Virus record (IMG/VR): IMGVR_UViG_3300027741_000025
Location: 1-64,000 of that record
Length of the DNA: 64,000 bases
DNA from: a virus
Direction: 5' to 3' (one strand)
This document shows, piece after piece, positions 292-21,131 of this stretch. Each line of letters begins with the position of its first letter. The stretch's first letter is position 1. The position numbers and the translations under genes are program-made. The notes beneath the pieces were generated by a model, which worked only from the letters and a program-made list of their open reading frames with translations, ran no database searches and was not told the origin of the DNA.

Positions 292-702
292 ATGAAACTA
301 TATTTCAAACAATACATTAATGAAGGTATCGAAATAGACACGCCAGAAGCCAAAGAATTAAGAAAACTTGTAGATAGTGGTGAATACCGATCTGGTGATT
401 GTTATGTTTGCTCAAGACGCTTTGCAATGAAGATAAATGGAGATTATGTAGAAGGTGTTTTAATGGGAGGATATCCCAAAAGACCGATTCTTCATGCGTG
501 GGTGGAAAAAGATGGTTTTGTTTATGATCCTACAACACCAGAAGCACTATCCAAAGAAGAATATTACAAAATATATAATGCCAAATCCCATTATAAATCA
601 GATGGAGTTAAAGCAACTTTAAAATCATCACGGGAAAATAAACCAGGACCAGTGGGAGAAGTTCCAGAGCGATTTGAGTTTAAAGATGGTGTGTGGAAGT
701 AA
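292..702 (+). CDS. Putative internal head protein, papain/transglutaminase-like fold
   Basis: N-terminus MKLYFKQYINE; GDCY, HAWVE and YDPT motifs give a Cys-His-acid order. Confidence 0.55.
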   Translation: MKLYFKQYINEGIEIDTPEAKELRKLVDSGEYRSGDCYVCSRRFAMKINGDYVEGVLMGGYPKRPILHAWVEKDGFVYDPTTPEALSKEEYYKIYNAKSHYKSDGVKATLKSSRENKPGPVGEVPERFEFKDGVWK

Positions 703-704
703 AC

Positions 705-1004
705 TTACATTGAAAATTTATCTTCAAAAGAATCTAAAATCTTAGGCTTAACTTTATTTTTATTTTCAGGTTTATTTGTAATTTTTGCGGCAGCTGACGC
801 AGGCTGATTAACCGGATTATTGTTGTTTTTTGTAATCAATTTGTCTGAGCACTTGCACCCTCTGCACTTGCAATTTTTGCAACTACATTTCGAACAGTCT
901 TTCAGCTTAGAACAAGGAAAGCAACGACATTCACAAGGAATTTCATTGATTATATCTTTGTTTTTTGTGTACTTATTTTCCATCCAATTTTTGAAACTTT
1001 TCAT
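705..1004 (-). CDS. Cys-rich (metallothionein-like) small protein with N-terminal tag
   Basis: Start at MKSFKNWME after GAGG; 11 Cys in CECRCFPCSKLKDCSKCSCKNCKCRGCKC. Confidence 0.65.
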   Translation of the reverse strand: MKSFKNWMENKYTKNKDIINEIPCECRCFPCSKLKDCSKCSCKNCKCRGCKCSDKLITKNNNNPVNQPASAAAKITNKPENKNKVKPKILDSFEDKFSM

Positions 1005-1044
1005 AATTTTAATCCTCAACTAATAAATACCTGATAAGGTATAT

Positions 1045-1275
1045 ATGAAAAAATTTAAAAAATGGCTGGCAGAAAATAAAGAAAATAAACCAACTATAGC
1101 TTATGGTGGATTCTTCAAAGACGGCAGAGTAATTGTTTATGTAGACGGAAAAAGATACGAATACGTAACAGATGCTGTTTACCATGAAAGATGGAAACGA
1201 AGAATACTCAGAGAACCATTTAAAGTATTAAACGAAATTAAAAAGGTAGCTATTAAGCAACCGGGAGAAGAATAA
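1045..1275 (+). CDS. Small hypothetical protein with N-terminal tag
   Basis: MKKFKKWLAE start; upstream TAAATA and AAGGT. Confidence 0.75.
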   Translation: MKKFKKWLAENKENKPTIAYGGFFKDGRVIVYVDGKRYEYVTDAVYHERWKRRILREPFKVLNEIKKVAIKQPGEE

Positions 1276-1277
1276 AC

Positions 1278-1610
1278 TTATTTTTTCCATGTTTTTTCTG
1301 CTCTAAGCAGACTATCTACATCTTTGTCAAATTGTTCCATTCCTTTGAAAACATATTTTTTCACCTGAGCTAATGTTTTGAAGGTTTTTATAATTTCGGA
1401 TGGTTTCATCTCATATACAGCAGTTGCAGGTTCTGCTCCATATTGAGACATCATCTTCTTATCATCCAAAACTTTTCTACAGATTTCATATGACGAATCT
1501 GCTAAAGCTATTTCTTTTGGAGTCGCCTTTGAAGCCCATCCTGGGTAATACTTTTTTGTATGGCTTTGTATGTTTTCTTTATTTTCACGCCACTCATGGA
1601 AACTCTTCAT
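1278..1610 (-). CDS. Small hypothetical protein with N-terminal tag
   Basis: MKSFHEWRE start; GGGAG upstream. Confidence 0.75.
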   Translation of the reverse strand: MKSFHEWRENKENIQSHTKKYYPGWASKATPKEIALADSSYEICRKVLDDKKMMSQYGAEPATAVYEMKPSEIIKTFKTLAQVKKYVFKGMEQFDKDVDSLLRAEKTWKK

Positions 1611-1646
1611 AATAATTTTCTCCCTGTAAGATAACTTATCTATACT

Positions 1647-2060
1647 TCAAAAGCCTATTTTCTCTACCTTATTAACATCTTTGTTTTTGCGTAAACTCTC
1701 AATAAAAGACTTAACATTCCATAGTTTATCTATTTTAACTTCATAAGAGCTATCACCATTTTGTTTAACGCTAACTACATTTCCGCCATTGGCTGAAACT
1801 ATATCTGAAATGGCTTCTATGTTGTTGGTATCCAAAACAATTATAATATTTTTATCAGAAAAAGCATTATATGAAACACCAACAATTAAAAATAAACAGA
1901 AGGCTAGTGCAAAAGCAGCAGGTCTAAACCAATTAATAGAAGGAGCCACAGGCTCAACTATTCGTCCCATATCAACAACAAGACCGTCATCTGTGGAACC
2001 ACTCTTTCGTAGAGAATCCATGTATCCAGGCAGGTTTTCAAGGCTCATTGGAGGTTTCAT
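1647..2060 (-). CDS. Single-pass membrane protein
   Basis: Start reassigned to MKPPMSLE (ATGA overlap with upstream stop); hydrophobic segment PAAFALAFCLFLIVGV. Confidence 0.7.
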   Translation of the reverse strand: MKPPMSLENLPGYMDSLRKSGSTDDGLVVDMGRIVEPVAPSINWFRPAAFALAFCLFLIVGVSYNAFSDKNIIIVLDTNNIEAISDIVSANGGNVVSVKQNGDSSYEVKIDKLWNVKSFIESLRKNKDVNKVEKIGF

Positions 2061-2603
2061 AGCATTTTGGCGTCTGGAGGATTTTGCTTCCATCCAAATC
2101 CTTTTTCACCTTCGGAGGGTTTACTAACAGCCCATTTATTTTTGGGAACATCATGCTTCTTTATTAAAGAATCTAACATATCCTTAACTTCAGACGATAC
2201 TCTGTTGTCTTTTTTATCAACAGCAGTATCGGTTACTGGTTGATAGAAATAAATATCTTTTCTTATTTTTATGAAATAAATATCACCTAATTTTAAATAC
2301 ATAGAACCCATTTGAGGATCAATTAAACCAACGCCAGTAGAGCGAGCATAATTTCTTAAAACATCTACCATTGCAGGATTGTTTGTCTTTGGAAATTTTC
2401 TTATTGTTAAGTCTGGTGAACTTACTAACTTTATAACTTCTGATTCACCACTGTTGGCTGAGGACAAATTTTGATTATCATCCGGATTATCGAAATGAAA
2501 AAAAAATTCATTTTTACTGGTTAGCCATTCATTAAAACTTTTCATAATCTTCCTTTCAATCATAGTATACAGGCAGAATTTCAAGGCTCATTGGGGGTTT
2601 CAT
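2022..2603. repeat. 39-bp direct repeat (2022-2060 and 2565-2603) flanking the 2057..2545 gene
   Basis: GTATCCAGGCAGGTTTTCAAGGCTCATTGGAGGTTTCAT vs GTATACAGGCAGAATTTCAAGGCTCATTGGGGGTTTCAT, 35/39 identical. Confidence 0.9.
2057..2545 (-). CDS. Tagged hypothetical protein, paralog of 2931..3332
   Basis: MKSFNEWLTSKNE start; shares ESEVIKLVSSPDLTIRKFPKTNNPAM with its paralog. Confidence 0.8.
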   Translation of the reverse strand: MKSFNEWLTSKNEFFFHFDNPDDNQNLSSANSGESEVIKLVSSPDLTIRKFPKTNNPAMVDVLRNYARSTGVGLIDPQMGSMYLKLGDIYFIKIRKDIYFYQPVTDTAVDKKDNRVSSEVKDMLDSLIKKHDVPKNKWAVSKPSEGEKGFGWKQNPPDAKML

Positions 2604-2920
2604 TTTATATTTATATCCCCATGGTAGTTAAGATTTTCAATAGCTTTTTGTAGTGCTTCCCATCGAGCTTTACTAGGGCTGTTTCCCATTCCCCGTAACT
2701 TCTGATTAGTCCATTTCCATAAGTTGTTAGAAAGATCTTCGCCACGTTTTTCAAACTCCCATTCTTCTCTGGCTTTTTTTCTGCGAGCCTCCCAGTCGTC
2801 TTCGGTTGGATTCTGGGCAGTCATCCGAGAAGTGTTTTGTGGTATCGCCCAATCACCGCTGTATGGCACTTCGCTATCTTGCTCGCGCAGTCTCTGAATC
2901 CAATTATTAAAACTTTTCAT
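2600..2920 (-). CDS. Tagged hypothetical protein
   Basis: MKSFNNWIQRLRE start; same TGAAAGRAAGATT leader as its neighbour. Confidence 0.75.
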   Translation of the reverse strand: MKSFNNWIQRLREQDSEVPYSGDWAIPQNTSRMTAQNPTEDDWEARRKKAREEWEFEKRGEDLSNNLWKWTNQKLRGMGNSPSKARWEALQKAIENLNYHGDINIK

Positions 2921-2930
2921 AATCTTTCTT

Positions 2931-3332
2931 TCAGTCATGATGCTTTATTAAAGAAACCACCATATCTTTGATTTCGGGCGATACAAATCGATCTTCTTTG
3001 TCAACCAGAGTATCAGTTTCTGGGTGATAAAAATAAATATTATCTCTTGTTTTTACAAAATAAATATCGCCTCTCTTAAGATACCCAGAACCCATTTTGG
3101 GATCAATTAAACTAACTTTTGTCTGGCGAGCATAATTTCTCAAAACATCTGCCATTGCAGGATTGTTTGTCTTTGGAAATTTTCTTATTGTTAAGTCTGG
3201 GGAACTTACCAGTTTTATAACTTCTGATTCATTGCCGTTAGTTGAGGACAAATTTTTATTATCAGTATAACTCGGATTATCAAAATGAAAAAATTCATTT
3301 TTAATACTTAGCCATTCATTAAAACTTTTCAT
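2931..3332 (-). CDS. Tagged hypothetical protein, paralog of 2057..2545
   Basis: MKSFNEWLSIKNE start; AAGGA upstream; clear paralogy. Confidence 0.8.
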   Translation of the reverse strand: MKSFNEWLSIKNEFFHFDNPSYTDNKNLSSTNGNESEVIKLVSSPDLTIRKFPKTNNPAMADVLRNYARQTKVSLIDPKMGSGYLKRGDIYFVKTRDNIYFYHPETDTLVDKEDRFVSPEIKDMVVSLIKHHD

Positions 3333-3394
3333 GTCATTCCTTTCAAGATAAACTATATATGCTCAAAAATAACATTTTTTTCCCTATATATTAT

Positions 3395-4339
3395 ATGAAA
3401 TTTTATCAATTAGACCAAAAAATACAAGAAAATAATAACTTTAAATTAGCAGCAAAGTATATTATTGAAAACAATATAAATCTTAATGAATTCCTAGACA
3501 ACATATTGATTGTATTAAGTGAAAGTGAAGAGAATCCAGGATTCTTTCAAAGAATAGGGCGAAACATTTCAAACATGTGGAATAACTTCAGGGGAAATCC
3601 ATATGATGTTGAAAGTGTAACAAAAGCTTTACAAAAAGTAACTCAGTTTTTAAGTGGAAACGAACAATTAAAAAAAACTTATATCGATGAAATAAACTCT
3701 TTGGCAAATGTTGTCAAAAACATACAAGCAAAAAGTAAACCAGTAACACAAGGATCATCAGAAAAGTCAGAACCAAGCTCAGAAGCTCCAAAAAACGAAG
3801 AAGAATTGATACAAGGTTATATGAAAAGGCTCACTTATGGAAAGCCAATCGAGTCAATACAGGGCGGTCCTCACGAAAAATCAACTCGTCTTTATGCCGA
3901 AGTTTTGGCAAAACAAGATCCTCAGGAAGTTGAAAATACAAAAAACAAGTTAATTCAGGATTTGAAAGATAAAGTTGCTATGGTTGAGAAACTTGATCCA
4001 AGATCGAAACAAATTTTCGGACATGCTGAAATAAAAAAAGTTCTTGATCATGAAACCTGGGCTGTTTGGGATATTGGCAAACAATTGTATATGATGCAAA
4101 ATCCTTCAAAAAGTGGAGAAGGATATACTGTGGGAAATCCATTAAAAGATAAAAATATACAAGAAGATATAACAGACAGAATGGTAGGATGGGCAATAAC
4201 ACTAGGGGGGAGGATGGATCAAAACAATCCGTCAGTAATATCACCCAAACCTATTTATAGTAGCTTAAGATTAACAGAAATTGGTAGACAAGTTGTTCGC
4301 TCTGCAAAAAGCGGAGGCATTGATTTTCAAGATGAATAG
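3395..4339 (+). CDS. Putative internal/ejected protein; N-terminal domain homologous to 20547..21131
   Basis: Start reassigned to MKFYQLDQKIQE; AA..[IM][IV]E..I....F pattern followed by an amphipathic GFF helix. Confidence 0.7.
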   Translation: MKFYQLDQKIQENNNFKLAAKYIIENNINLNEFLDNILIVLSESEENPGFFQRIGRNISNMWNNFRGNPYDVESVTKALQKVTQFLSGNEQLKKTYIDEINSLANVVKNIQAKSKPVTQGSSEKSEPSSEAPKNEEELIQGYMKRLTYGKPIESIQGGPHEKSTRLYAEVLAKQDPQEVENTKNKLIQDLKDKVAMVEKLDPRSKQIFGHAEIKKVLDHETWAVWDIGKQLYMMQNPSKSGEGYTVGNPLKDKNIQEDITDRMVGWAITLGGRMDQNNPSVISPKPIYSSLRLTEIGRQVVRSAKSGGIDFQDE

Positions 4340-4344
4340 TACAT

Positions 4345-4449
4345 CTATACCAACCCCTTCTTAATTTTTTCTATAAATATATTCATGTTTTTCTTGTTGT
4401 AAACGTGACCAAAAAGATTCATCTCGGTCCAGACTTCAAAGGGGATGTT
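4345..4449 (-). pseudogene. 3' remnant of a TnsA-like endonuclease gene (copy 1 of a 98-bp direct repeat)
   Basis: Translates NIPFEVWTEMNLFGHVYNKKNMNIFIEKIKKGLV*; FxVxTE resembles the end of the TnsA N-terminal domain. Confidence 0.55.
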
Positions 4450-4454
4450 ACAAC

Positions 4455-5141
4455 TTACCATTTTGGAGATCTTACTTTTGAGTTAGGTCCACCTAAATCA
4501 AAAATCACATAGGTGCCGTTTTCCCTTTTTCCTATATTTCCTGGATGGAAATCATCAATTGCTACTCCTGATTTTTTTACATCTTTTATTATTTTATCAA
4601 AATTGAATTTATTTTTAAGAATTGAAACAGCGTTTTGATAAATTTTATTTTCTGGATTTGATTCTTCAATTTGATCCCAAGACATTGTCATAAATGGATA
4701 AGTATAATTCATACTTTCGGGCAGGTCTTCCGAAACAGTATCGATTGCTTCATAATAAGTTTTAGATTCTAGTGCATCTATTGGATATATTCTTTCTTGA
4801 ACAATTATTCCAAAATTTCCATTATTCCATCTATCCCATTTTGGAACTTCGTATGTAAAATTTATTACTTTATATATTCTACACATGTAATTGTATTGTT
4901 TATTTTCTAAGTGTTTGGATATCCATAATTCATTTGCATCATATGTTGCTTTTAAAACTTCTCCATTTTGTAATAAATATGCTTCTCCGTTATCCCCTCT
5001 TCCTAATAATTTTATATTTTCTATATTTATTCCTTTTTCATTGAGAAGATTTTTATACTCATTTAATAGAATTTTGATTCTGAGGTGGTAGTTTGCCCTT
5101 GGATCATCCTCGTTTAATAACCAATTTTTAAAACTTTTCAT
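4455..5141 (-). CDS. Protein kinase-like protein with N-terminal tag
   Basis: LGRGDNGEAY Gly loop, VLK, DFHPGN catalytic loop, FDLG; start MKSFKNWLLNE. Confidence 0.8.
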   Translation of the reverse strand: MKSFKNWLLNEDDPRANYHLRIKILLNEYKNLLNEKGINIENIKLLGRGDNGEAYLLQNGEVLKATYDANELWISKHLENKQYNYMCRIYKVINFTYEVPKWDRWNNGNFGIIVQERIYPIDALESKTYYEAIDTVSEDLPESMNYTYPFMTMSWDQIEESNPENKIYQNAVSILKNKFNFDKIIKDVKKSGVAIDDFHPGNIGKRENGTYVIFDLGGPNSKVRSPKW

Positions 5142-5148
5142 AACATAT

Positions 5149-5253: not shown

Positions 5254-5261
5254 TAATTTGA

Positions 5262-5357
5262 CTCAGATGGAGCTGGTGCGAAAAGACAAATAAAATTATT
5301 GTTTAAATATTAAGAAATAATTTTAAAGTTATCCTTCGAGAAGGAGCGAAATTTTAT
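5262..5357. other. Two synonymously recoded capsid-gene fragments around an AT-rich hairpin (candidate guide/antisense RNA or operator sites)
   Basis: 5262-5282(-) encodes FAPAPSE, matching MCP 7275-7295; 5334-5357(+) encodes LREGAKFY, matching MCP 7014-7037; all mismatches synonymous; inverted repeat at 5291-5325. Confidence 0.75.
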
Positions 5358-6980: not shown

Positions 6981-8414
6981 TTACACGATAAAATTGGCTA
7001 TGTTGAGGCGAGCGTAGAACTTTGCTCCCTCTCTAAGCAACTTCTTCCCATACCTTGTTAACAGTCCTTTTCTTGGGGAGAAGGAATCTGGGTCTAACAC
7101 AACTGGTGTCTGTGTGAGTGGCACGTATGGGCAGTAGAAATATCCGCTGTCCATATAGCTGTCACCCTTATAACCCATAAGGAGCTGTCCGGTTGGGAAC
7201 AGTGGATCCTTATACAGTCTCCAACGATTGTTTACAGTACCGACATACTGGATGCCGAGTGAGCTTGTAAATGTTTCTGAAGGAGCTGGTGCGAAACCCG
7301 CAGTAGCTGTTTCGAAAACTGAAGCAACTTCTGGTGATGTAACAATGAAGTTAGCACCGCCACGAAGTGTCTTACGATGGATCACGTTGCTGACTTCAAC
7401 AACCTTGACGTATAGTGATTCATACTTTTCCTTGATGGTATCACCAAGAGCAGTATTGAAATCCCAAGCTGAAACAGTACCAGCGTTATTGCGGAGGTCA
7501 CCAAGAACTTCACGATCGATTTCAAGGTTGATTTCCTGAGCAAGAACGGCAGTTAGCTCAGCCTCGGCGTCGAGGTTGTGCTGTGAGCGAAGATCTTGCT
7601 GAGCTTCGTAGCTCCAAACTGCCTTCAGTTTGCGAGTCTTAGCGGCAATTTCCTGGCTCTCGATTGTCAGATTGATCTCTGGCATATCGGGGTTGTTTTC
7701 CATGTTGTATTCATAGCTGATTACAACCTTTGAACCACCCGATGAACCTGTCCAAGTTAGTGCAAGAGCACCATCAGCTAGGCTGAGTGTACCAGCAGTA
7801 ACATAAGCACCACCACTAACGTCAACGCTGGTAAGACTTAGGCTGCTGCTGTTTGCAGGAACAACGAATGTCTGGATAACGTTAACACCATCATAGACGG
7901 TACCAGTGACAGTACCAGCAACAACTGGAACGTGCTCAAGTGTAGCACTTGTGACGTTGCCCGAAACACTGGCGTGAACTTCGTTCTGAACGAACTGATG
8001 TGAATAGAAAACGTCAAGGTTAGCAGTGCCGTCAGCAAGCTGCTGTAGTGAGTTAGCATCATCGCCGGGGAAGCCGACTTTGTTGCTAGCACCACGGACC
8101 GCACCCTTGTCGCTTCCGTATCTAAAACGGAGATAGTAAACGAGACCGGTTGGTCCGAGCAATGGCTGGACTGAAACGATCTTGTTTGCAATCAACTGTG
8201 GATAAACTCTACGAACGAGTGGGATGCTGATTCTCTTGAATTGAGCAACGTCACCTGTGTCAGTAGCAGACTCATTGATGAGTCTCTGGTTTTCAAGAAG
8301 TACGGCTGTATTGGATCGGACAGTACGATCTTCGATTCCATCTAATAAGCCAGTCTTCTTCCAACGAGACTCTAACTCCTTAGCCTCGTTTAGAAATTTA
8401 GCATTGATATTCAT
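6981..8414 (-). CDS. gp23: Major capsid protein, T4 gp23-like
   Basis: LLENQ, LVRR..P.LIA..IVSVQP, AKTRKLKAVWS.E..QDL, EINLEIDRE, FYCPYVPL, GLLTRYG. Confidence 0.97.
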   Translation of the reverse strand: MNINAKFLNEAKELESRWKKTGLLDGIEDRTVRSNTAVLLENQRLINESATDTGDVAQFKRISIPLVRRVYPQLIANKIVSVQPLLGPTGLVYYLRFRYGSDKGAVRGASNKVGFPGDDANSLQQLADGTANLDVFYSHQFVQNEVHASVSGNVTSATLEHVPVVAGTVTGTVYDGVNVIQTFVVPANSSSLSLTSVDVSGGAYVTAGTLSLADGALALTWTGSSGGSKVVISYEYNMENNPDMPEINLTIESQEIAAKTRKLKAVWSYEAQQDLRSQHNLDAEAELTAVLAQEINLEIDREVLGDLRNNAGTVSAWDFNTALGDTIKEKYESLYVKVVEVSNVIHRKTLRGGANFIVTSPEVASVFETATAGFAPAPSETFTSSLGIQYVGTVNNRWRLYKDPLFPTGQLLMGYKGDSYMDSGYFYCPYVPLTQTPVVLDPDSFSPRKGLLTRYGKKLLREGAKFYARLNIANFIV

Positions 8415-8463: not shown

Positions 8464-9360
8464 TTAATTGGTTCTTTTAACACCAGCTAAGACTTGTAAA
8501 TCGTTGAAGTCACTTGTGTCGCTAGCATTTTCCGCAATGATAGCTTCACCGGCAACTAGTTGTCCTCTCCCCGATACATTCTTGCTTTTTTCGACTCTTT
8601 CATTCTGTTCATTAACAATCCCAGTCTTCTTAGCGACAACTGCAACTTCTTTCTGCTCAGTAATAACATTGTGAGCAGCTCTTACAGCTTCGTTAAGTTT
8701 GGTGTTCTCGGTGCTTAAGCGAATGCTTCTGGCTTCGAGGAGCTTGATTTGACCCTTCAGGTCATCAATAGCCTTCTTTGATTCTTCAAGTTTGGCACCT
8801 GAAGCAGCAGCATAATCTTCGTCACTTAAGTAATCACTTGTGATATCAACGATCTTGTCGAAGGCACTCTTGTGCTCAGCCATTCTTGGATCGTTCATAA
8901 TATCATGTTTGGCTTGTTCATAAATCTCAGATCCCTTGAACTGTAGGAACTGATCGACTTTATCAACAATGTATTCTTTCATCTCAGCGAGCTTCTTGTC
9001 ATACTCTTCGTATAGGGAAACTTCGAGATTACCATTCTTGCTTCTTTCTTCTTTGAGCATTTGGTAAGCTTCTTCATAACCCTCTTCAAGAGCAGCTTCA
9101 TACTCTTCGCTTTGAACTTCGAGTCTATTTCTTAGCTCACTGATAATTGAGTAAGCTTCGGTATAACCCTTCTCAGCGACAGTTTCGGCGTCTTTGAGTT
9201 CCTTGGAAAGCTCAGCATAAGCTTCCTCAAGTTTGTTGTTGAATTCAGTCTCTAACTCTGTCTTAGCTTCCTTCAGCATCTCCTCAATGGCTGAAGTAAC
9301 TTCACTAACTTGATCTTCAGGCAACAGTTTCTCAAGTGCCTCTTGGATTTTATTGTTCAT
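8464..9360 (-). CDS. Prohead scaffold/core protein (gp22-like)
   Basis: Acidic coiled coil between protease and MCP; C-terminal LQVLAGV; start MNNKIQ in an ATGA overlap. Confidence 0.8.
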   Translation of the reverse strand: MNNKIQEALEKLLPEDQVSEVTSAIEEMLKEAKTELETEFNNKLEEAYAELSKELKDAETVAEKGYTEAYSIISELRNRLEVQSEEYEAALEEGYEEAYQMLKEERSKNGNLEVSLYEEYDKKLAEMKEYIVDKVDQFLQFKGSEIYEQAKHDIMNDPRMAEHKSAFDKIVDITSDYLSDEDYAAASGAKLEESKKAIDDLKGQIKLLEARSIRLSTENTKLNEAVRAAHNVITEQKEVAVVAKKTGIVNEQNERVEKSKNVSGRGQLVAGEAIIAENASDTSDFNDLQVLAGVKRTN

Positions 9361-10052
9361 GAGCCTACACCTCGCTTTAATGAATTGGTTGAATTTTCTA
9401 TTAATGTACCTAAGCAAGCAATTAAAGCTTGTTTATTCACTTTATATATGCTTGAGCTTTCATTTTTTCTCGAAAATTCTTCCACCGCAGAAGAATTTTC
9501 CATACTCACCACTGAACTTTCCTTTTTAGCTGGAACTTTTTCTTGGTAAGCAGCAAATGTGCTTGGATCGGCAACTGCATCGAATGTTATTAACTTGTAG
9601 CTTTCGCCAATCACAAGTATTCCATTCTCGTCAACTTTGCCATTACCAACACCTCTACTACTGATGCCAATTCTAACTCCATCGTTTAAAAGACTTTTCA
9701 GTATTTTTCCATGAGGAGTGTTGAGGATTTCCCCTTCACCCATCAATACATTTCCGTCCCACCAGAGCTTTGTAATAACATGACTTGCCTTCTCAAAGTG
9801 AATGATGCTATCAGTTGGATGATCCAACTCACCAATCAAGCCTCTGTGTTTTACGCACTCTTGTAATTTCTTGACGTTCTCATCGAGGACGCCATATGGG
9901 TACATTCTTTTGTTTTTATTAATTGCTTCTGCTTCTTGGAATTTACCTCTGAATTTGGTGAGCCCTTTATCACTCACCGATTCATTCAAATCCATCGTGA
10001 AGCCAGAATGCTGACAACTGTCTATGAATAGTATTTCTTGTATTTCTTTCAT
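9357..10052 (-). CDS. gp21: Prohead maturation protease, T4 gp21-like
   Basis: NKNKRMY, GELDHP, SHVIT, TPHGKI, GISSRGVG, DAVADPS. Confidence 0.95.
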   Translation of the reverse strand: MKEIQEILFIDSCQHSGFTMDLNESVSDKGLTKFRGKFQEAEAINKNKRMYPYGVLDENVKKLQECVKHRGLIGELDHPTDSIIHFEKASHVITKLWWDGNVLMGEGEILNTPHGKILKSLLNDGVRIGISSRGVGNGKVDENGILVIGESYKLITFDAVADPSTFAAYQEKVPAKKESSVVSMENSSAVEEFSRKNESSSIYKVNKQALIACLGTLIENSTNSLKRGVGS

Positions 10053-10066: not shown

Positions 10067-11848
10067 TTATTTGGCTAAGGGGTTGTTAAGATTGGGCCAT
10101 GTATCCTTGCCTTGATTTGTGCCCAGATCGTCACTATCCTTGTCTACTCCTTTATCGCCTTTCATAGTAAACTCCATTGAACTTGGAACATAAGGATTGC
10201 TGAGTGAAGGATATGTATCTTCTCCACCAACATTGCCCCATGCATTGCTCATGAGTTCGTCATCAAGATCGTTCTTGATTGTTTTGCCGTCACTTACTGG
10301 AGATTTGCCAGTGTCTACTACACTGTCATCCTCAGCATCAGCAGCGGGTGAATAACTCTTCTTGGCATGAGCGTGAACCATTGGGTGGTCACCTGTGGCT
10401 GATACATTTGGTTCCATTGTTTCCCAATCCATTGATCCGAGGTTGCTCTCGTAAATGTCTCTGAGATAGTTGGCAACAAACTCAGCAAGCTGAACATCTG
10501 GCTCTTGCTCTCTATTTACAACATAAATACACTCTTGCATGAGCTGAGTGGTTTCACTTACTATTTCCTTTTCTCCGAGGCTTTCTGCAAGACTCTTCAA
10601 ACTATCAAGAGCTTCATACAGATCAGAGAACACCTTTAGCTCACCTGCTTCTGAAGCATCAACATAGTTGTAAAGTTTGTTTGCAACATCCTTGAATTCA
10701 ACATACTTGTCTTCGCTCTCTAGCTTAACGCCAGTGAGGCTAACAATCTTTGATACTCTGTCTGCGTATGCATCGAAAGCGGTTCTTAAGATTGCTTCGG
10801 AGATGAATTCACATGTATTATCATCATAATTTCTTGCACCAGCCATCTCAAGAGCACTCTTTACTGTTTCAGACATTTCTGACTGTGTGAGATAAAGAAC
10901 TTCTGGGAAACTGGCAACTACGTTCTCAAGAGCTGTTTCTAAACCATTGTTGTTTGAAACATTGTTATGCTTCTTGATTTCAACAACGTGCTTAGCAAAC
11001 TTTTCGCTTTCACAAAGCTTCTTAGCCTTGCTTCTGAGAACCTTGACTTCGGTGTCCATGGTCTTCCAATCAAAACTCAGAATCTTGCCTTCATTCTTCT
11101 TGAGATCTGATGGGATCTTAACAGCAACTACATTGCCTTTATCATCATGGTTTATGGTGCATTCCTTGTAGAATGGACCCATTTCTTTGTGATTTACATA
11201 ACCAAGAACGTTCTCTGTTAAAGTGTTCCATTCTTTCATGGTCTTAACAACGTACATTCTGGCTCTTGGGTTTGACATGCCCTTGAGTCTTCTTTTGGCT
11301 GGAGCTGTGAGAGTCTTGAAAGCACTCTTCATACCCCTTCTCTTTCTCTTGGTTATTAGCATTTTTCTGATACGCTCCTTGACAACAGATCGCTTTTGAT
11401 GTCTGTTTCTTAGTGGGCTACGTCTGCCGTGTGGATTGGCTACTTTAACCTTATAACCCTCAGCTAGACTTCTTTTTACACCTGGGAGCTTGAGGTACTC
11501 ACCTAGTTTAGCACCAGCTTCTTCTTCTTTGTTTTCAATAAGATCATCAATCAATGATGAAATAAGCTTCTTTGACTCATTCTTTTCGCTATCTTCGTCG
11601 ATCACAAGCTCTTCAACGTTCTCAAGGCTTAAGCCACTCGCGTCGAGTTTGTAGTTGGCACGAACATAGTCCTGATCAAGAGTCTTATAAACAGCTTCTG
11701 ACTCGTTAAAGAAAACTAATTCAAGTTGCTCTGTTTCTAAGACGTTAGCTAGAACTTCTTCTGCATTAACTAACTGCTCTTGAATTTTGGAAATGGATGC
11801 CTCTTCCATTTTCTTCAAGGCATCATAGCTGATTAATTTACGCTTCAT
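10067..11848 (-). CDS. Large prohead core-associated protein
   Basis: First gene of the head operon; many L-x-E sites; basic patch; C-terminal DT[YW]PxLxNP repeat. Confidence 0.6.
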   Translation of the reverse strand: MKRKLISYDALKKMEEASISKIQEQLVNAEEVLANVLETEQLELVFFNESEAVYKTLDQDYVRANYKLDASGLSLENVEELVIDEDSEKNESKKLISSLIDDLIENKEEEAGAKLGEYLKLPGVKRSLAEGYKVKVANPHGRRSPLRNRHQKRSVVKERIRKMLITKRKRRGMKSAFKTLTAPAKRRLKGMSNPRARMYVVKTMKEWNTLTENVLGYVNHKEMGPFYKECTINHDDKGNVVAVKIPSDLKKNEGKILSFDWKTMDTEVKVLRSKAKKLCESEKFAKHVVEIKKHNNVSNNNGLETALENVVASFPEVLYLTQSEMSETVKSALEMAGARNYDDNTCEFISEAILRTAFDAYADRVSKIVSLTGVKLESEDKYVEFKDVANKLYNYVDASEAGELKVFSDLYEALDSLKSLAESLGEKEIVSETTQLMQECIYVVNREQEPDVQLAEFVANYLRDIYESNLGSMDWETMEPNVSATGDHPMVHAHAKKSYSPAADAEDDSVVDTGKSPVSDGKTIKNDLDDELMSNAWGNVGGEDTYPSLSNPYVPSSMEFTMKGDKGVDKDSDDLGTNQGKDTWPNLNNPLAK

Positions 11849-12118: not shown

Positions 12119-12454
12119 ATGAAATCTTTTCAAAAGTTTATTGAAAGTCTTGACACTGGTCTTCGTGGAGAACTTGAAAAAAGCGTTGGAAATGCTTCTT
12201 TTAATCAGGATCAAGAAAAAGCTATAGCAACTGTTACCAACTTGATCATGATGGCAGCCAATGAATCACCAGCCAGACTCATGACTATGTTGAAAACACT
12301 TAGTTCAAGTGAGCCAGCCATGAAAGCTATTTATGATCAAATTGATGTTAGTGCACTAAGAATGGCTGCTAAGAAGCACGTCAGCCCAGAAGCTGTAGAC
12401 GATGACAACATGATTGCCACATCACCAGATGATGCTATGAGACATGGTGTCTAA
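12119..12454 (+). CDS. Tagged hypothetical protein
   Basis: MKSFQKFIE start. Confidence 0.8.
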   Translation: MKSFQKFIESLDTGLRGELEKSVGNASFNQDQEKAIATVTNLIMMAANESPARLMTMLKTLSSSEPAMKAIYDQIDVSALRMAAKKHVSPEAVDDDNMIATSPDDAMRHGV

Positions 12455-12750
12455 TGAAAAGTTTTAATGAGTGGGTTTTAACAGAAGAAGCTAAGAAATC
12501 TTCTCCTAAAAAGAAGGTTGAAAAAAAGTCTTCTTCAAAAAAAGAAGACGTTAATACCACTAATAAAATTCATGCTGTAATGGATATTGCAGAAAGTATT
12601 CAACATGTGTTTAAAAAATATACTTTGAACACAAGAAAAGATGCTTGGAGAAAATTAAACACTCCAAAAGCAAAAGAACTTTTTGAAAAATTGCTCATAA
12701 ATCCCGATAGATCTCTCAACACTTTCAGAAATATAGCCACTGAAAAATAA
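12454..12750 (+). CDS. Tagged basic hypothetical protein
   Basis: MKSFNEWVLTE start; TAATG overlap; Lys-rich. Confidence 0.8.
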   Translation: MKSFNEWVLTEEAKKSSPKKKVEKKSSSKKEDVNTTNKIHAVMDIAESIQHVFKKYTLNTRKDAWRKLNTPKAKELFEKLLINPDRSLNTFRNIATEK

Positions 12751-13531: not shown

Positions 13532-13768
13532 TCAAAATAATTTTGATGGAATTTCTCTTCTGATCCCAAAAGACGCAAACCTAGGCTTTCGCTTTTCCTT
13601 TTTTCTGTTTTTCTTAGTTGGAGGTAGGTCATCTCCACCCAAACTCATATTAGGATCTGCTGTTAATTCGCTTCCAAGGGGTGGATGATCATTTTGATCT
13701 GTGGCTGGGTCAGCCATAGAACCATAAATAAATCCTCCACCACTTTCAAGCCATTGTTTAAAGTTCAT
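13532..13768 (-). CDS. Tagged small hypothetical protein
   Basis: MNFKQWLE start; basic C-terminus. Confidence 0.7.
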   Translation of the reverse strand: MNFKQWLESGGGFIYGSMADPATDQNDHPPLGSELTADPNMSLGGDDLPPTKKNRKKEKRKPRFASFGIRREIPSKLF

Positions 13769-14928: not shown

Positions 14929-15006
14929 AATATATTCCTTTTAATTAAATGTGAATTAGTGCTGTGATAATATTTAGTGCTGTTGTGATAATATTTAGTG
15001 TTGTTT

Positions 15007-18000
15007 TTATGGCAAGGATGCTCCACGCCAAGAATTTGAATACCCCCAATTGTTTGTTTTACTAATTGTCGAAGTAGAATAACTTAAATTAAATCCAGTT
15101 GATCCACTGTTAAAACTAGACGGCTGTGCGTACACCACAAAGAAAGGCAAAAAGTCCCCAGGAACTAAATTAATATTTACTGACTGTTCATTAGTAACTC
15201 CGCCTAAGTCATAATTACTCATTGTTGGAGATAAAGCATGAGATCCTAGCCATAGATAACTTCCGCTATCTGCAGATAGGTAAAAAGTATGAGTTTCTGC
15301 AGTTGTTGCCAAAAAATATCCTTGTATCTTAATGACTCCAGCACCCCAATTCATTAGGTTTTGACCAACAACTGTTCCCGAACTATATACAACACTTACT
15401 GTGCTGTGAGTGCCAAAATATTCAATTGTGTCATCCCATTCACTAGCATATATGTAAGCCGTATATCCTGCGTTTAAGCCCCCAGGATCAGGGTATGTTA
15501 TTGGGTATGGTGTATTAGTTGGAGTCGGAGTCGGTGTTGGTGTTGGTGTTGGACAAATTTCTATATTTGAAATAGTGTTGTAAGAAGCCCACATAAACGA
15601 TTTATTTTCACTTGAATAATAATAATATTTATTTGCAACCACAGTTTGAATTTGTGCTCCTAAGGAATCCAAATAAAAACTCATACCATTAGTAAGTGTT
15701 GGGCTTGGAGAATATATGGTTATTTCTCCCCAACCCTCCGATTCTAAAGCGCACGCAGTTTCATTATCAACCCAACCATACTTATTATTCATACCATCTG
15801 ATTCACTATATTTTATTGTATATGAATACGGTGCTAAATCACCAGTAGCTGTTGCTGTTGGTTCAGGTGTAGCTGTTGCTGTTGGTTCAGGTGTAGCTGT
15901 TGCTGTTGGTTCAGGTGTAGCTGTTGCTGTTGGTTCAGGTGTAGCTGTTGCTGTTGGTTCAGGTGTAGCTGTTGCTGTTGGCGTAGGTGTAGCTGTTGCT
16001 GTTGGCGTAGGTGTAGCTGTTGCTGTTGGTGTAGGTGTAGCTGTTGCTGTTGGCGTAGGTGTAGCTGTTGCTGTTGGCGTAGGTGTAGCTGTTGCTGTTG
16101 GCGTAGGTGTTGGTGTTGGTGTTGGTGTAACCACCACAGGTTCTACGAACGAACTAACTGCGTTATACCAAGTATTTGTGTCTGAGCTCACAATTTCGCC
16201 ATCTTTAGCCGAAACTACTTTTCTGTTTCCGCAATTATCAGTAAGTTCAAAGTATCCGGTTCTCTGGATACTTCTACGTTTTCCGGTAACTGGATCGACT
16301 ATTATTGCAGTATCCATATTGCCTTCTCCGTCATAGGCATAATTAGGAATAGTTTCTGGATGATCTGGACTAAGATTTAATTCATATGTCTTTGGACCAC
16401 AGCCACCTAATCCAGCTACTTCCAAGAATTTAGTTGCAATTTCTTTTGCTTCTGCAGCCTCCATTGCAACCCCATTGCCTTTGCCCACACAAAGAAAGAA
16501 GAGTTTTGTCTTGCCCTCAAGCCCAGTGATGCAATGCTCATCACCCCTAGAAGTTGGATCATAAAACTGATCGATTCCATCTCCATTACCATCAACGATT
16601 ATAATGTGGTTTATCGAAGGATCACCAGCACCATAATTAGTTTTGAGATATGCGGTATAAGTGTTGCCCCCTGCGTTAATTGGGAATATTTCTGAAATAT
16701 CTGCACCGTCGCCGTCCGATCCTATATCCCCAGTTATTGAAAACTGTGTGATGTTGATGTTGTTTGCCGCAAGCACGAACATTCCGGGGAACATAGCTGT
16801 GAAGTAACTGCTCCCTTCACCGAAATATCCATCACCGACCATGACGTGGCTGTCGCACACAGGGAGATATCGGTACTCAGGCCACTCAATATCGTCGCTA
16901 CCTGTTTCGTCTGGACCTCTTGATTCATCATAAAAATCGTCCTCTGGTCCTTGATCCCATGCTTGAGTGTGAGTGGAAGGAATGCTACTGTTAGCGTTAA
17001 GCCCACAAATAACTCCGGCTTCGGGACACCCGCAAGCTCCTTCACCACCGCTGACAACATTATTGCCTCCATAGCACTTAATGTAAAGATAAGGAAGCGT
17101 CAGATTGGTATTTAAAAAATTTGCTCCGTCATACATGTCGTCCATGCCGTCGTCTATTCCCATCTGCTTGAAAGCAGGAAGAACGCTCCACTCCTGCAAC
17201 GTGCCATTTGCGTCCAACTTGGCGTATTGAAACCTTGCGGCATGGTTGTAATCAGTGAAACTTCCGGCAACATAAACATTACCATCAGCGTCCAATTTTA
17301 TATCTTGAACTCTTGGACCCCAATTCCATCCATTATAACTGAATCCGAATCCGATATCGAATGTTCTGTCTATCGAAGTAGATGCAGCAGGATAGGTATA
17401 TTCCAATCTTGCTATCCTGCTCTGCCACAACCCGTTTGCATTGTCGAACCAACCACCAACTATTATCTTTCCATCATCTTGAAGAGCTATGGTGTTAACT
17501 CCGCCTTGATGATTGCCATCATCGGGTGTGTCTCCTGTCCAAACATCATCAAAGAAAACAGAAAGGAAATTATTGTCTCTAGTTCCGTCGCTGTTCAAAA
17601 GAGTCAGTCCCTTTCCACAATCTACGCCATTATAGGTGCTGAACCAGTGTCCAACTAAAACTTTATTATCAGGCTGAACCTTGATGGAACTTACTCTGGG
17701 ATTGCCACCGCCGATACTACTACCAAACCCAGACCCTACGCTAAAACTGCCGTCTGTGGTTCCGTCTTCATTCAACTTTATGATCTTGTTCGTGAACTGA
17801 CCGCCGACATATATTCCAAGGGTTCCTCCGGAATAGTCGCCCGTCACCTCTATTGCGTGAACAGCGCCATTCAATGAAACATTTCCCGCAAAGGTTCCAT
17901 CCACAATTCCATTGCTGTCCAAAAGGGCAATTTTGCTACAATTTACGCCGCCATATTGGTTAAAACTTCCACCAATCAAGATTCGGTCATCACTTAGCAC

Positions 18001-19158
18001 CTTGACCACATATATGTTGCTATTTGCACCCGGAACACAATTAAATTCATTAAGAGTTCCGTCCGAGTTCAGCCTGACGATGCGACCCGCCGATGCCTCG
18101 ACATCGAACTGATTGACTTGGTCAAAATGCCCGACCACAATCAATCTCTCATCTGACTGTTGAGCGACATCACGAACGTATCCGTTATCACCACCGCTGA
18201 AAACAGGAGGCATAAAACTTTCATCTTCTGTTCCGTCCTCGTTTATTCTTCTTATGTTGCGAGATTGGTCGTTTAACCCACTCACACCTCCGACCACAAT
18301 CTTTCCATCAGCCTGTATGAGCACAACATCGCCAAGACCAAGCTGATCAAAGTTGGGATCTATTCCATCTCCACTACCGCCATCTATATCGGCATCGTCT
18401 GAAAACAGAAACAGACCCTTAACAAGGTCAGTGACCTGGGAGTAACCCGTCTTGAGATTGCTTAGTTGCCCATTCAACTCTTCGTCGTCCGAGGCACCAT
18501 TTGCTTCGTAAATGTTGATCATTACGCCCTTGAAGTAAGCCGTGCCTCCATCATAGTCAGCATCAAATCCAATTCGGTAAGGACCGCCATCCATCAACTT
18601 CTCGTGCAACACAATTGTGTCAAGAACAGTTCCTAAGGTGTCCTCGCCTTCATAGGTGACGGCAGTAACGGTTCTGGCGGCTGGGTTATATGTGACCTTG
18701 AAGGTGTAGACGCCATTTTCTAGAACATCGGAGCCTCTTCTGTCTGAGTTCCATAAACCATAATACTCACCAGAATTGTTTACAAACTTGTTCGTGCCGT
18801 AAATGTATGGAGTTGGGCAATTAACAGAAAACGCTATTCTTGAAGGATCTGGATTCCAATTCCAATTTGGTAATTGTCCATCATTATAAAAACATATACC
18901 TTGGTCTGTGCAATCATCATTGTGATCTACTGTAAAAATAACTTCACAAACTTGATGCCCACTGATATTAAAATTAGTTCTTACGCTATATCCTGTGATC
19001 GGAGTGCTGCCGAACGGACCATCCTGACTAGAATTTCCAATAAAATACATACCATCAGGACCAAAGCCAAAGTCAGTGTTTAAGGTTTTCCCGGTTTGAT
19101 TACCATATTCGGCTAGCCAAGATGGTATTGAAGTAAGGTCGCTGGTATATGTTTTCAT
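15007..19158 (-). CDS. Large adhesin-like virion protein: delta-60 beta-propeller repeats, PT linker, PA14-like C-terminus
   Basis: Repeated Q.DGKI..GG.F...I.RLN.DGT.D..F; (PTATAT)n; GYF..T....[15 protein letters not shown]. Confidence 0.75.
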
Positions 19159-19206
19159 ATAATTTCCTTTTTAATGATTTATAAAGGTATATATGAAAAC
19201 TACAAA

Positions 19207-19782
19207 TTATTTAACAATTAGACTTTTGATTTTATATCTATACTTTTCATAGAAGCTTTCGGCTTCGCTCATTATGTTTCTATCTATATAAATTTCTTTT
19301 TTATCTTGTGTGTTATTTTTTATCTTTATTTTATCTTTTATTCCAATCATTTGATGAATTTTATTGTAAGTTTCATTGTTTTGTAAATCTTCATCAAAAA
19401 ACACAAGGCAGTCGCCTGATTTTTTGATCATCTCATATATTCTTCTAACTCTAAAGCAGTAATAATTACAAGCAGTTCTTTCATCATAAATCTTATTATG
19501 AACTATGCTATCTAAAGATTTTTTTGGATCACCAACAACATAAACAAAGTTCAGATATTTAAATAATTCTTTGCAAGAAAACTCATGATTATAGAGAATG
19601 TGATCAAAATAAACCTTGGGTCTTTTTCTATATTCTGTGTTTGGTCTTTTAAAAGATAGACAATCTAAGTTGGAATATAAATTAAAATTTAACCTCTGAA
19701 GCCTAACACCAGAGTCCAAATTTTGAACTAATCTGTCACTTCCTGATTCTAAGTGACTTACAATTAAAAGAATTTTATTCAT
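19207..19782 (-). CDS. Sulfotransferase-like protein (degenerate)
   Basis: LLIVSHLESGS..L resembles the RSGS PAPS loop; FVYVVGDP resembles the I..vRDP motif. Confidence 0.45.
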   Translation of the reverse strand: MNKILLIVSHLESGSDRLVQNLDSGVRLQRLNFNLYSNLDCLSFKRPNTEYRKRPKVYFDHILYNHEFSCKELFKYLNFVYVVGDPKKSLDSIVHNKIYDERTACNYYCFRVRRIYEMIKKSGDCLVFFDEDLQNNETYNKIHQMIGIKDKIKIKNNTQDKKEIYIDRNIMSEAESFYEKYRYKIKSLIVK

Positions 19783-19874
19783 TTTAATTCAACTGTTAAA
19801 TTACAAACAACTTCTTTTTTCTCTTCTGCGGAAGTTTCAATAGAAATTCCAGGTATTCCTTCGATTTTTAGCAT
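19779..19874 (-). CDS. 31-aa small protein (not in ORF track)
   Basis: GAGG RBS; MLKIEGIPGISIETSAEEKKEVVCNLTVELK*; ATGA overlap. Confidence 0.5.
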   Translation of the reverse strand: MLKIEGIPGISIETSAEEKKEVVCNLTVELK

Positions 19875-19896
19875 AAATTACCTCTCTTTAGGAGAG

Positions 19897-20550
19897 TTAA
19901 TAATAATAAAGTTTATACTTAAAGCTTGGTCCACCTCGGCGGCTTTTGTGATAGACTTGCATAACAGCACACCATAGAATTAATTCTTTTACTTTGTGTT
20001 TTCTTGCTAAAGACACGAGATCATCTTCCTTAAATCCTTTCTCCCTCTCCGCCAGTAACCAAGAAGTTATTTTTTCAACACTTTCTTCTTCCGAGCTAGA
20101 CAGATGATTTAGCATATAATTACCCAAAAAAAATGCCTCATCGCGATCGTCGCCTTTTGATTCACTTGTGTCAGCCATTGTTTTAAGAATAGAGTCAAAA
20201 GAATGTCCTTTTTCAAGCTCTCCTCTTGCCCAATTTACCAAATTCTTTTCTCTTGATAGTCGATTTAGGTAGCGTGCATTATTATTAATAATGTGATCAG
20301 GTATTTTATGATCTTTTGCTATTTTATTTATTGAATCTATCGAATGTCCTTTTTCAAACTCTCCTCTTGCCCATTTATTATATTCCTCGACTTTTTTATA
20401 ATAGATGTCAGCCTCTTCTTTTGATTTCCAATGCTTTCCGTAGATGTCGCGAACGGAGTCTGGTTCTCCGCCTGGCTCGTGGGACCAGGGCAAGGGCTCT
20501 TCATCTTCGTGTTCTTCATTTTCTCTTAAAAACTTTTTAAAAGTTCTCAT
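19897..20550 (-). CDS. Tagged protein with an internal helical repeat
   Basis: MRTFKKFLRE; WARGE[FL]EKGHS[IF]DSI twice plus a degenerate third copy. Confidence 0.75.
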   Translation of the reverse strand: MRTFKKFLRENEEHEDEEPLPWSHEPGGEPDSVRDIYGKHWKSKEEADIYYKKVEEYNKWARGEFEKGHSIDSINKIAKDHKIPDHIINNNARYLNRLSREKNLVNWARGELEKGHSFDSILKTMADTSESKGDDRDEAFFLGNYMLNHLSSSEEESVEKITSWLLAEREKGFKEDDLVSLARKHKVKELILWCAVMQVYHKSRRGGPSFKYKLYYY

Positions 20551-21131
20551 GTTGTTGGAGGAGGTGATGGTCCACCAGAAGGAGTTCCACCAGAAGGAGT
20601 TCCACCAGAAGGAGTTCCACCAGAAGGAGTTCCACCAGAAGGAGTTCCAGCACCTCTTTGAGAGAATGTTGGTTGAGTATTTGCCGCAGGCTGCATTCTT
20701 GGAATCATTTCTTTTTGCTTTTCAAGAGTAGCCAATATTCTTTTCATGTAGAAGGCTAAATTAGTTTTTCCATCTGTCATTGTCATATTTTTAGTCTGAT
20801 CATTCTTTTCTAATGTATCGATTAATGCTTTCAAAGAATTAACAGCAGAATCAAATTTAGATCCAGGACCCATTACTGTGTCCTTTGCTTGAGCCCAGCC
20901 CCCCTTGACGCCTCCGCCGCTGATAACATTTTGTCCGAATTGCTTGATCCCAGAACCAATATTTTTTATTGTATCTAAAAATCCTTCTTGTAACTCAATA
21001 TCTGGATCTTTCGAAACATAATCTAATATGAATGTTTGTGGATCTATGTCCATTTCAACCATAAGATCGGCTGCTCTGACAATAGAGTTCTCAAGATTCT
21101 TGTGATCAACAAATTCATAAAAAGTTTTCAT
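20547..21131 (-). CDS. Putative internal/ejected protein, paralog of 3395..4339
   Basis: MKTFYEFV start; LQE|GFLDTIKNIG; (GGTPS)x5 tail from a 15-nt repeat at 20571-20649. Confidence 0.75.
   Translation of the reverse strand: MKTFYEFVDHKNLENSIVRAADLMVEMDIDPQTFILDYVSKDPDIELQEGFLDTIKNIGSGIKQFGQNVISGGGVKGGWAQAKDTVMGPGSKFDSAVNSLKALIDTLEKNDQTKNMTMTDGKTNLAFYMKRILATLEKQKEMIPRMQPAANTQPTFSQRGAGTPSGGTPSGGTPSGGTPSGGTPSGGPSPPPTT

Follow-up and report, generated by a model that had tools for sequence, protein, structure and literature searches.

A shared T4-like N-terminal leader on a large and varied set of candidate head-packaged proteins in a T4-related megaphage

The stretch of DNA analysed here (the window) comprises the first 64 kb of the 144,363-base virus record IMGVR_UViG_3300027741_000025 of IMG/VR, and since CheckV rates this record as 29% complete, the full genome is probably near 500 kb in size. 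A T4-type head module, composed of genes for a capsid protein, an acidic protein, a protease and a portal-position protein, lies on the minus strand of the window and is flanked by genes whose products begin with a common short peptide (Table 1). This N-terminal peptide, hereafter referred to as the tag or leader, is the subject of the present report, and it resembles the capsid-targeting sequence (CTS) carried by T4 internal proteins IPI, IPII and IPIII, which is removed by the gp21 prohead protease (PMC9026906, PMC3012670).

The first-pass annotation of this DNA had listed 14 such N-termini, and each of them indeed starts at the position given there as an open reading frame (ORF) of 76-314 amino acids (those at 292, 1045, 12119, 12454 and also 3395 on the plus strand, the others on the minus strand). 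The pattern M-[KR]-x-F-x-x-[WF] fits 11 of the 14. The N-terminus at 3395 (MKFYQLDQKIQE) is weak, since position 7 is not aromatic and the ORF may instead start at 3359, while that at 292 is a variant, which is supported because its orthologues start with the canonical forms MNFKNWLNE or ...KKSFKKWLEIRE. Purine-rich ribosome-binding sites are located 5-10 nt upstream of the tag ATG, also where an earlier in-frame ATG is present (2563, 2938), and in the case of the 2057-2545 gene the site GAAAGGAAG directly precedes the tag ATG.

ORFs were called over the whole 144-kb record by a longest-ORF rule with ATG starts, so that the counts given here may be off by a few. In the six-frame translation, the strict form M-[KR]-x-[FY]-x-x-[WFY] gave 16 matches, of which 13 open called genes and three lie in scraps of 7-9 codons. 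These 13 genes are 11 of those listed previously, together with the genes at 94199 and 100410, the latter matching the strict form but possessing an N-terminus that resembles a hydrophobic signal peptide. No match was found at internal positions of called genes, despite the presence of 721 internal methionines. A looser core motif, F-x-x-[WF]-[ILVMR]-x(0-5)-E, occurs within the first 25 residues of 20 of 162 ORFs, as opposed to four of 1488 internal 25-residue windows (p ~5e-27). These expressions fix some positions by construction, and the signals independent of this are Met1 anchoring, Lys2, Ser/Thr3 and the P3 residue of the putative cleavage site. Of the 26 genes in the first 22 kb, 13 belong to the 20 tagged ones (p = 8.5e-8), meaning that half of the genes flanking the head module carry the tag, and the clustering around the head operon noted previously is thereby borne out. 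A further seven or so tagged genes are located beyond the range covered by that annotation, at record coordinates 84296, 94199, 99328, 105309, 126785, 132682 and 136306.

Table 1. Tagged genes and head-module genes of the record. Coordinates are those of the window unless marked as record coordinates; the residue following "then" is the one after the tag.
Feature	Coordinates	Strand	Length (aa)	Details
Tagged candidate cargo	292..702	+	136	MKLYFKQYINE then G; variant tag
Tagged candidate cargo	705..1004	-	99	MKSFKNWME then N; Cys-rich, basic body
Tagged candidate cargo	1045..1275	+	76	MKKFKKWLAE, NKE, N
Tagged candidate cargo	1278..1610	-	110	MKSFHEWRE, NKE, N
Tagged candidate cargo	2057..2545	-	162	MKSFNEWLTSKNE then F; paralogue of 2931-3332
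Tagged candidate cargo	2600..2920	-	106	MKSFNNWIQRLRE then Q
Tagged candidate cargo	2931..3332	-	133	MKSFNEWLSIKNE then F; 76% identical to 2057-2545
Doubtful member	3395..4339	+	314	MKFYQLDQKIQE; no core-motif match
Tagged candidate cargo, probably kinase-like	4455..5141	-	228	MKSFKNWLLNE then D
Major capsid protein, gp23 type	6981..8414	-	477	Pfam Gp23 1e-87; phrog_138
Candidate scaffolding-core protein (gp22 position)	8464..9360	-	298	pI 4.6; between protease and capsid genes
Prohead protease, gp21 type (Peptidase_S77)	9357..10052	-	231	PF03420 3e-27; phrog_207 9e-49
Portal candidate	10067..11848	-	593	Position-only assignment; adjoins protease; conserved in 57 related loci
Tagged candidate cargo	12119..12454	+	111	MKSFQKFIE then S; Ser3 codon TCT
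Tagged candidate cargo	12454..12750	+	98	MKSFNEWVLTE then E; basic, Lys/Ser-rich
Tagged candidate cargo	13532..13768	-	78	MNFKQWLE then S; tag one residue shorter
Tagged candidate cargo	19897..20550	-	217	MRTFKKFLRE then N; internal WARGE(F/L)EKGHS repeats
Tagged candidate cargo	20547..21131	-	194	MKTFYEFVDHKNLE then N; GGTPS-repeat C-terminus
SNF2 helicase, membership uncertain	record 96470-99328		952	Starts MKFTSFLENKEN
HExxH candidate cargo	record 132658-133140, tagged gene listed at 132682	+	152	HEIGH; conserved in LR756511

The capsid-targeting sequence found on T4's internal proteins is reportedly the subject of a 1996 study by Mullaney and Black. In the T4 record NC_000866, the leaders read MKTYQEFIAE for ipII and ipIII and MKTFKEFTS...ITE for ipI. 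The consensus drawn from 79 distinct tags, collected from the present record and 80 related loci, is M-K-[S/T]-F-[K/N]-E-W-L-E-N-K-E. Residue 4 is Phe in 48 of the 79 tags and residue 3 is Phe in 18; the short form M-x-F-x-x-[WF]-L-E, as carried by the 13532-13768 protein, likewise accounts for 18 of the 79 and recurs in relatives. Leader length is the same as in T4, where leaders of this type comprise 10-19 residues, and the sequence is nearly identical (MKT[Y/F]xEF[I]xE in T4, MK[S/T]FxE[W/F][L/I]xE here), although Trp is preferred at position 7, the short form MNFKxWLE is common and a stretch reading ...ENKEN often follows the leader, all of which sets the present tags apart from those of T4. 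Incorporation into the T4 head requires only the first ten residues of IPIII, with residues 4 and 7 being the main ones for targeting, and residues 8 and 10 for processing (PMC9026906), and the conserved tag positions coincide with T4 positions 4 and 7 (targeting) and with position 8 and the Glu (cleavage). Furthermore, T4 gp21 cuts after the Glu of I/L-x-E (PMC12991175), a preference that fits the first Glu after the core of the tags, where P3 is L, W, F or I in 56 of 66 cases. As a side observation, the T4 gp61.1 gene (NC_000866 18966-19130, minus strand), which is annotated as encoding a hypothetical protein of 54 amino acids, starts with MKTFKEFIKE followed by D, a near-perfect leader of the ipI type.

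A common start of this kind could in principle reflect a signal in the RNA, such as an A/U-rich translation-initiation region or the operator of a RegA-like repressor, with the likeness of the peptides as a by-product; the exact bases ATGAAAAGTTTTAA are common to six genes, and the region is A/T-rich, as is usual for efficient start regions. The codons employed, however, vary while the residue classes do not: Ser3 is encoded by AGT, TCT or TCA and Phe4 by TTT or TTC, the aliphatic residues of position 8 are specified by six different codons, and position 7 holds either Trp or Phe. Because the amino-acid classes (at positions 3, 4, 7 and 8) persist across these codon changes, the constraint on the shared start, as read from the codons, is on the protein and not on the RNA. 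The leaders of orthologues moreover differ in sequence while retaining the aromatic spacing and the Glu, and the pattern is the same as that of the experimentally mapped T4 peptide signal. We consider an RNA-level explanation very unlikely.

Behind the leader, the tagged proteins have little in common. When the first 25 residues were removed, the bodies of 21 tagged proteins displayed no mutual similarity in BLAST and phmmer searches, except for one pair. The earlier statement that the bodies are unrelated thus holds, and several distinct fold families appear to be represented; of the two pairs of paralogues that had been claimed, only one, consisting of the 2057-2545 and 2931-3332 proteins, was recovered (BLAST at E values of up to 5, and phmmer). 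The leader and the body also appear to evolve separately. In orthologues of the 4455-5141 protein, the body is 66-85% identical, and the leaders read MKSFKNWLLNE, MNFYEIYQIINE, MNFYELYQLIKE or M[E/K]FKQFFNE, so that the pattern is kept while the sequence is not. A similar situation is found among orthologues of the 1045-1275 protein, with a conserved body and a variable tag (MKFRKWVENKEN, MIKFNEWLENKEN); the 12454-12750 protein has orthologues bearing the identical tag in 14 related loci. In AlphaFold (AF2) models of two of the candidate cargos, the first 11-12 residues have pLDDT values below 50 and are not packed against the body.

The 4455-5141 protein offers a view of the tag on a domain that occurs well beyond this clade. 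A profile of this protein found 529 cluster representatives, and 149 listed matches outside its own cluster were compared. Of these, 105 are larger proteins, the top scorers having 1100-2500 residues and 3-6 copies of the domain, and, among the matches listed, nothing resembling the tag was seen in 43 of the 44 stand-alone homologues outside the clade. It is on account of these untagged homologues that the tag is seen, at the sequence level, as having been added to a widespread domain in this lineage. With regard to the domain itself, the 1100-2500-residue proteins with its 3-6 tandem copies derive from public metagenomes, and one of them also carries an inorganic pyrophosphatase domain.

None of the 14 tagged proteins of the window matched a Pfam or PHROG family, and among nine further tag-like proteins the same two collections gave a clear match for the helicase only; no candidate cargo matched a Pfam or PHROG family of known counter-defence function. 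Nevertheless, some bodies could be tentatively classified. The 4455-5141 protein contains several motifs that do not vary among its orthologues, namely a Gly-rich loop (GRGDNGEAY), the lysine of VLK, DDFHPGN and FDLG; at TM scores of 0.5-0.69, its Atlas model aligns with Pkinase, Kdo and T7-kinase clusters of viral and bacterial origin, and its homologues match ABC1, APH and Pkinase, with the cut-offs of ABC1 and APH being reached. Foldseek against the PDB returned APH(2'') and ROCK kinases as its best, albeit weak, matches (E ~0.01). VIA-align against 48,161 PDB representatives yielded generic beta-sheet matches (Z <=6) with no kinase in the top rows, a sequence profile search of the PDB was empty, and Pfam at E values of up to 10 gave no kinase family, as a result of which the assignment draws on the motifs, the Atlas structure matches and the homologues. 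We consider this protein a probable small kinase-like enzyme.

The body of the 292-702 protein possesses an invariant Cys37, His68 and Asp79. Its AF2 model has a pLDDT of 77.5 (below 50 for residues 1-12), and the top Foldseek matches are protein-glutaminase, staphopain, SseI and GtgE, all of them weak (E >=0.09); the combination of residues and model suggests that this is probably a papain- or transglutaminase-like enzyme. Two of its orthologues carry the canonical tag, followed by an extra basic Cys-containing segment of approximately 50 residues (KPRKGMKTRWSLKYKKNINCSNPKGFSQKNYCKRQKRGG) and then by the conserved body, and this segment may represent a second module between tag and cargo. In the 705-1004 protein, 13 residues out of a stretch of 33 are Cys, a run that resembles metallothionein (CECRCFPCSKLKDCSKCSCKNCKCRGCKC).

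Two of the tagged genes outside the window merit separate mention. The HExxH protein reads MLKINFKYFLESEE from its ATG, while a start at the Ile codon three residues in would give the short tag (M)NFKYFLE, and a non-ATG start is thus a possibility. As regards the SNF2 helicase, a relative of 34% identity starts with MKEYNKWLLL, and on present sequences its membership among the tagged proteins is uncertain, for reasons to which we return below. With this helicase, the tagged proteins span 76 to 952 amino acids.

Such diversity bears on a further explanation of the shared N-terminus, namely that all these genes belong to a single old paralogous family whose bodies have diverged beyond recognition, there being no portable tag at all. 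One clear pair of paralogues exists, and most bodies are small ORFans without a family match, as such a history would predict; on the other hand, the bodies appear to have different folds (protein-kinase-like, papain-like with Cys-His-Asp, SNF2 helicase and HExxH), their lengths range as widely as stated above, and the kinase-like domain is widespread without the tag. Common descent of the whole set is, in our opinion, hardly credible.

The clade to which this phage belongs was delineated by protein searches. The closest public record is an unannotated 595-kb uncultured phage, LR756511.1, whose capsid protein is 73% identical, and a capsid-protein scan of IMG/VR yielded 369 related stretches on contigs of up to 533 kb. 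These capsid relatives, together with LR756511.1, identify the phage on sequence grounds as one member of a large clade of T4-related megaphages. Nucleotide searches with the head operon and the cargo cluster gave no match in the phage collection, and only the protein search found relatives; that collection yielded no cultured representative of the clade. The nearest cultured phage by capsid protein is Flavobacterium phage immuto, at 38% identity.

The scan of the record and its relatives, which the first-pass annotation had called for, revealed an excess of the motif at N-termini over internal windows or reversed controls. When a strict DNA pattern for the tag was counted against its reversed control record by record, five related megaphage records gave 6 versus 1, 3 versus 0, 12 versus 0, 11 versus 0 and 14 versus 2 matches, and T4 gave 10 versus 0 (ipII and ipIII among them). 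The core motif is present in 33 of 1094 N-termini of LR756511 (595 kb, complete) against 23 of 4927 internal windows, the corresponding figures for T4 being four of 267 and 14 of 1522. The tagged genes themselves are shared to a far lesser extent: two of 21 have a homologue in LR756511, compared to 56 of 141 untagged genes (p = 0.007), and the difference is retained when only genes of up to 330 amino acids are considered (two of 20 versus 37 of 104, p = 0.03). One shared gene, that of the HExxH protein, is canonically tagged in LR756511 as well (MEGFRQFFE). Since LR756511 has approximately 30 tagged genes of its own but few in common with the present record, it seems from these comparisons that the label is stable across the clade while the labelled genes turn over quickly. 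This is reminiscent of the T-even internal proteins, which form a diverse set in which only the CTS is conserved (PMC3012670).

The machinery that a leader of the T4 type would require is also predicted at this locus. The protease is 34% identical to T4 gp21, and its His78 and Ser131 align with the catalytic His85 and Ser140 of the T4 enzyme (active-site residues according to PMC12991175), while the capsid protein is 30% identical to T4 gp23. The candidate scaffolding protein contains 16 [L/I]-x-E sites, or 5.4 per 100 amino acids against a record mean of 1.1; this is the highest density in the record and is what would be expected of a scaffold degraded by the prohead protease. The portal candidate has no Pfam or PHROG match, and BLAST against T4 gp20 gave no significant similarity.

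It had also been pointed out that the capsid protein itself begins with ...FLNE. This sequence is indeed present at residues 7-10 and is kept in all 79 relatives, yet it forms part of a conserved 47-residue segment that ends in RL[I/M]NE directly before the region aligning with mature T4 gp23. To judge from this alignment, the segment is a capsid propeptide homologous to the delta region of T4 gp23, rather than a cargo tag. Both candidate sites (FLNE10 and RLINE47) are compatible with the specificity of the protease; the main maturation cut is more likely to fall after Glu47 (RL[I/M]NE47 followed by S, the sequence here being RLINE47), and FLNE10 may be a secondary cleavage site.

The reading that we consider likely takes the shared N-terminus for a loading propeptide of the T4 type that the prohead protease removes and that is employed here on an enlarged payload. 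According to this model, the leader of 9-14 residues would form a short helix with the aromatic residues of positions 4 and 7 and the aliphatic residue of position 8 on the same face, a geometry suggested by their i, i+3, i+4 spacing, and would bind the protein to the scaffolding core during prohead assembly. The gp21-type serine protease encoded at 9357-10052 would then cut after the first hydrophobic-x-Glu, leaving the mature protein in the head with the DNA, from where it would enter the host cell upon infection. As the leader alone would be needed, any gene gaining it would become cargo. The payload would be encoded by some 20 genes within 144 kb, half of which flank the head operon, and would include likely enzymes of the kinase-like, Cys-His-Asp papain-like and HExxH types, and perhaps the SNF2 helicase. 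The first-pass annotation had likewise proposed a modular T4-like capsid-targeting tag with a large and varied cargo; this proposal is partly supported, the comparisons of motif, conserved positions, protease, cargo folds and untagged homologues all agreeing with it, and we infer from it the scaffold binding, cleavage, packaging, injection and any role against host defences.

Several observations weigh against this reading. The scaffold candidate shows no similarity to T4 gp22 in BLAST and matches no Pfam or PHROG family, so that the presumed binding partner of the leader is assigned by position and composition only. A small number of tags have no hydrophobic residue at P3 (KNE at 2545 and 3332, NLE at 21131). 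The immuto phage encodes an S77 protease and has no excess of the motif (three matches versus five in the control), from which it follows that the tag does not simply accompany the protease. K-mer enrichment in the 100 nt upstream of tagged versus untagged genes disclosed no convincing shared promoter, the best k-mers being TTGATA (5 versus 5) and the weakly enriched ATATAT. The SNF2 helicase is normally a cytoplasmic enzyme, and its closest orthologues have Ile, not an aromatic residue, at position 4. Finally, the presence of the tagged proteins in the virion, and their cleavage, are deductions from sequence.

Some of these points would equally suit a peptide signal with another destination, be it another assembly, a phage compartment, a membrane or an effect on protein stability, involving neither head loading nor removal by the prohead protease. 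Packaging is deduced, the tagged genes include the SNF2 helicase and enzymes without a known role in virions, immuto has the protease but no tags, and the tagged genes of related genomes lie dispersed and not beside the head genes. Against this, the leader closely resembles the T4 CTS, the targeting positions 4 and 7 included, and is directly followed by a site of the gp21 type, half of the tagged genes flank the head operon in the present record, and a signal peptide or membrane anchor would have to be longer and less polar than these leaders. We therefore regard a different destination as improbable, and loading into the head as the reading to be compared with known systems.

Of these systems, T4 is the closest. 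The conserved positions 4, 7, 8 and Glu, the protease family with its catalytic dyad and the gp23-type capsid are all shared, as is the underlying logic, in which the leader alone is conserved on unrelated proteins that turn over rapidly. In T4, an Asp at CTS position 10 prevents processing yet leaves targeting intact. The scale and the setting are different: T4 has three such genes plus the look-alike gp61.1, as compared to approximately 20 in 144 kb here and approximately 25-33 in the 595-kb relative, and half of the tagged genes adjoin the head operon here, whereas the T4 ip genes are located elsewhere in the T4 genome. Furthermore, the cargo here, known from its sequence, appears to include enzymes, unlike the T4 internal proteins.

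For enzymes as cargo, T4 nonetheless provides a precedent. The packaged ADP-ribosyltransferase Alt and the core proteins gp67 and gp68 have cleaved N-terminal propeptides of their own, and Alt, an enzyme loaded by way of such a short propeptide, acts on the host right after injection, as the kinase-like and papain-like proteins might. The Alt leader is of another type (MELITELFDE, NC_000866), and no ADP-ribosyltransferase was found among the tagged proteins.

In the large phages phiKZ, 201phi2-1 and SPN3US, ejection and inner-body proteins are processed by a gp21-related protease (PMC5694885, PMC7411985), so that here, too, many packaged head proteins are cleaved after Glu; most propeptides of the phiKZ/SPN3US type, however, measure 80-130 residues, and they share no short consensus (PMC5694885), in contrast to the 9-14 residues and strict consensus of the present leaders. 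In phage P1, DarB has a capsid packaging signal in its N-terminal 30 residues (PMC9024508), and this signal is sufficient to load a very large helicase-containing protein, and a packaged SNF2-type helicase is, in view of this, not implausible. P1 belongs to another phage lineage, the N-termini of its Dar proteins do not share a consensus, and loading proceeds stepwise, depending on other Dar proteins. The CTS has been suggested to provide T4-like phages with an evolutionary means of loading varied proteins (PMC9026906). What we propose is this known T4 mechanism in a new setting, with regard to the megaphage clade, the number of genes, their clustering at the head module and the apparent enzyme content, all as judged from sequence; a full-text literature search (of a limited collection) returned no report of a CTS repertoire in huge phages.

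A number of neighbouring genes were noted in passing. Between the cargo cluster and the capsid gene, a 376-residue protein (5354-6484, minus strand) combines TnsA-like and endonuclease VII/Lar-like domains, and just beyond the 3' end of its gene, at 5262-5357, short stretches encode LREGAKFY and FAPAPSE, peptides that are also present in the capsid protein; by its sequence, this gene and its flank look like the footprint of a homing-endonuclease insertion. Within the tagged-gene region, a protein of 1383 amino acids (15007-19158, minus strand) contains five beta-propeller repeats (DUF5122) along with a Pro-rich, Cornifin-like stretch and, at its C-terminus, a GLEYA adhesin domain, and is probably a fibre or adhesin. 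Adjoining the last tagged genes, a Peptidase_M28 aminopeptidase (21221-22294, plus strand; 2e-41) possesses a hydrophobic, signal-peptide-like N-terminus.

Proteins that are injected together with phage DNA act ahead of phage gene expression. To our knowledge, IPI* of T4, which acts against GmrSD, is the only well-understood pre-packaged counter-defence protein; another T4 internal protein, IPIII, is a determinant of host range. For uncultured giant phages, we know of no current means to tell which of their hundreds of genes of unknown function encode injected proteins. If the leader works in this clade as it does in T4, a ten-residue motif would nominate dozens of injected candidates per genome and would be usable across at least several hundred related contigs, given the 369 capsid-gene relatives in one collection. 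The candidate enzymes would be the first targets for expression, packaging and host-defence assays, and the leader could be put to use in loading proteins into phages that infect other hosts. It would also mean that the T4 loading signal is ancient, or that it has arisen anew in relatives that share only 30% capsid-protein identity with T4. More tentatively still, and with rather less conviction than we hold for the loading signal itself, the leader may be a clade-wide readable address label, by which the injected proteome of each genome could be listed from sequence, at some 25-50 proteins per genome; these would form an enzyme-rich arsenal (a kinase, a Cys-His-Asp protease- or deamidase-like protein, a zincin and perhaps an SNF2 helicase), far larger and more enzymatic than in any characterised T4-like phage, that would reprogramme or disarm the host before phage genes are expressed.

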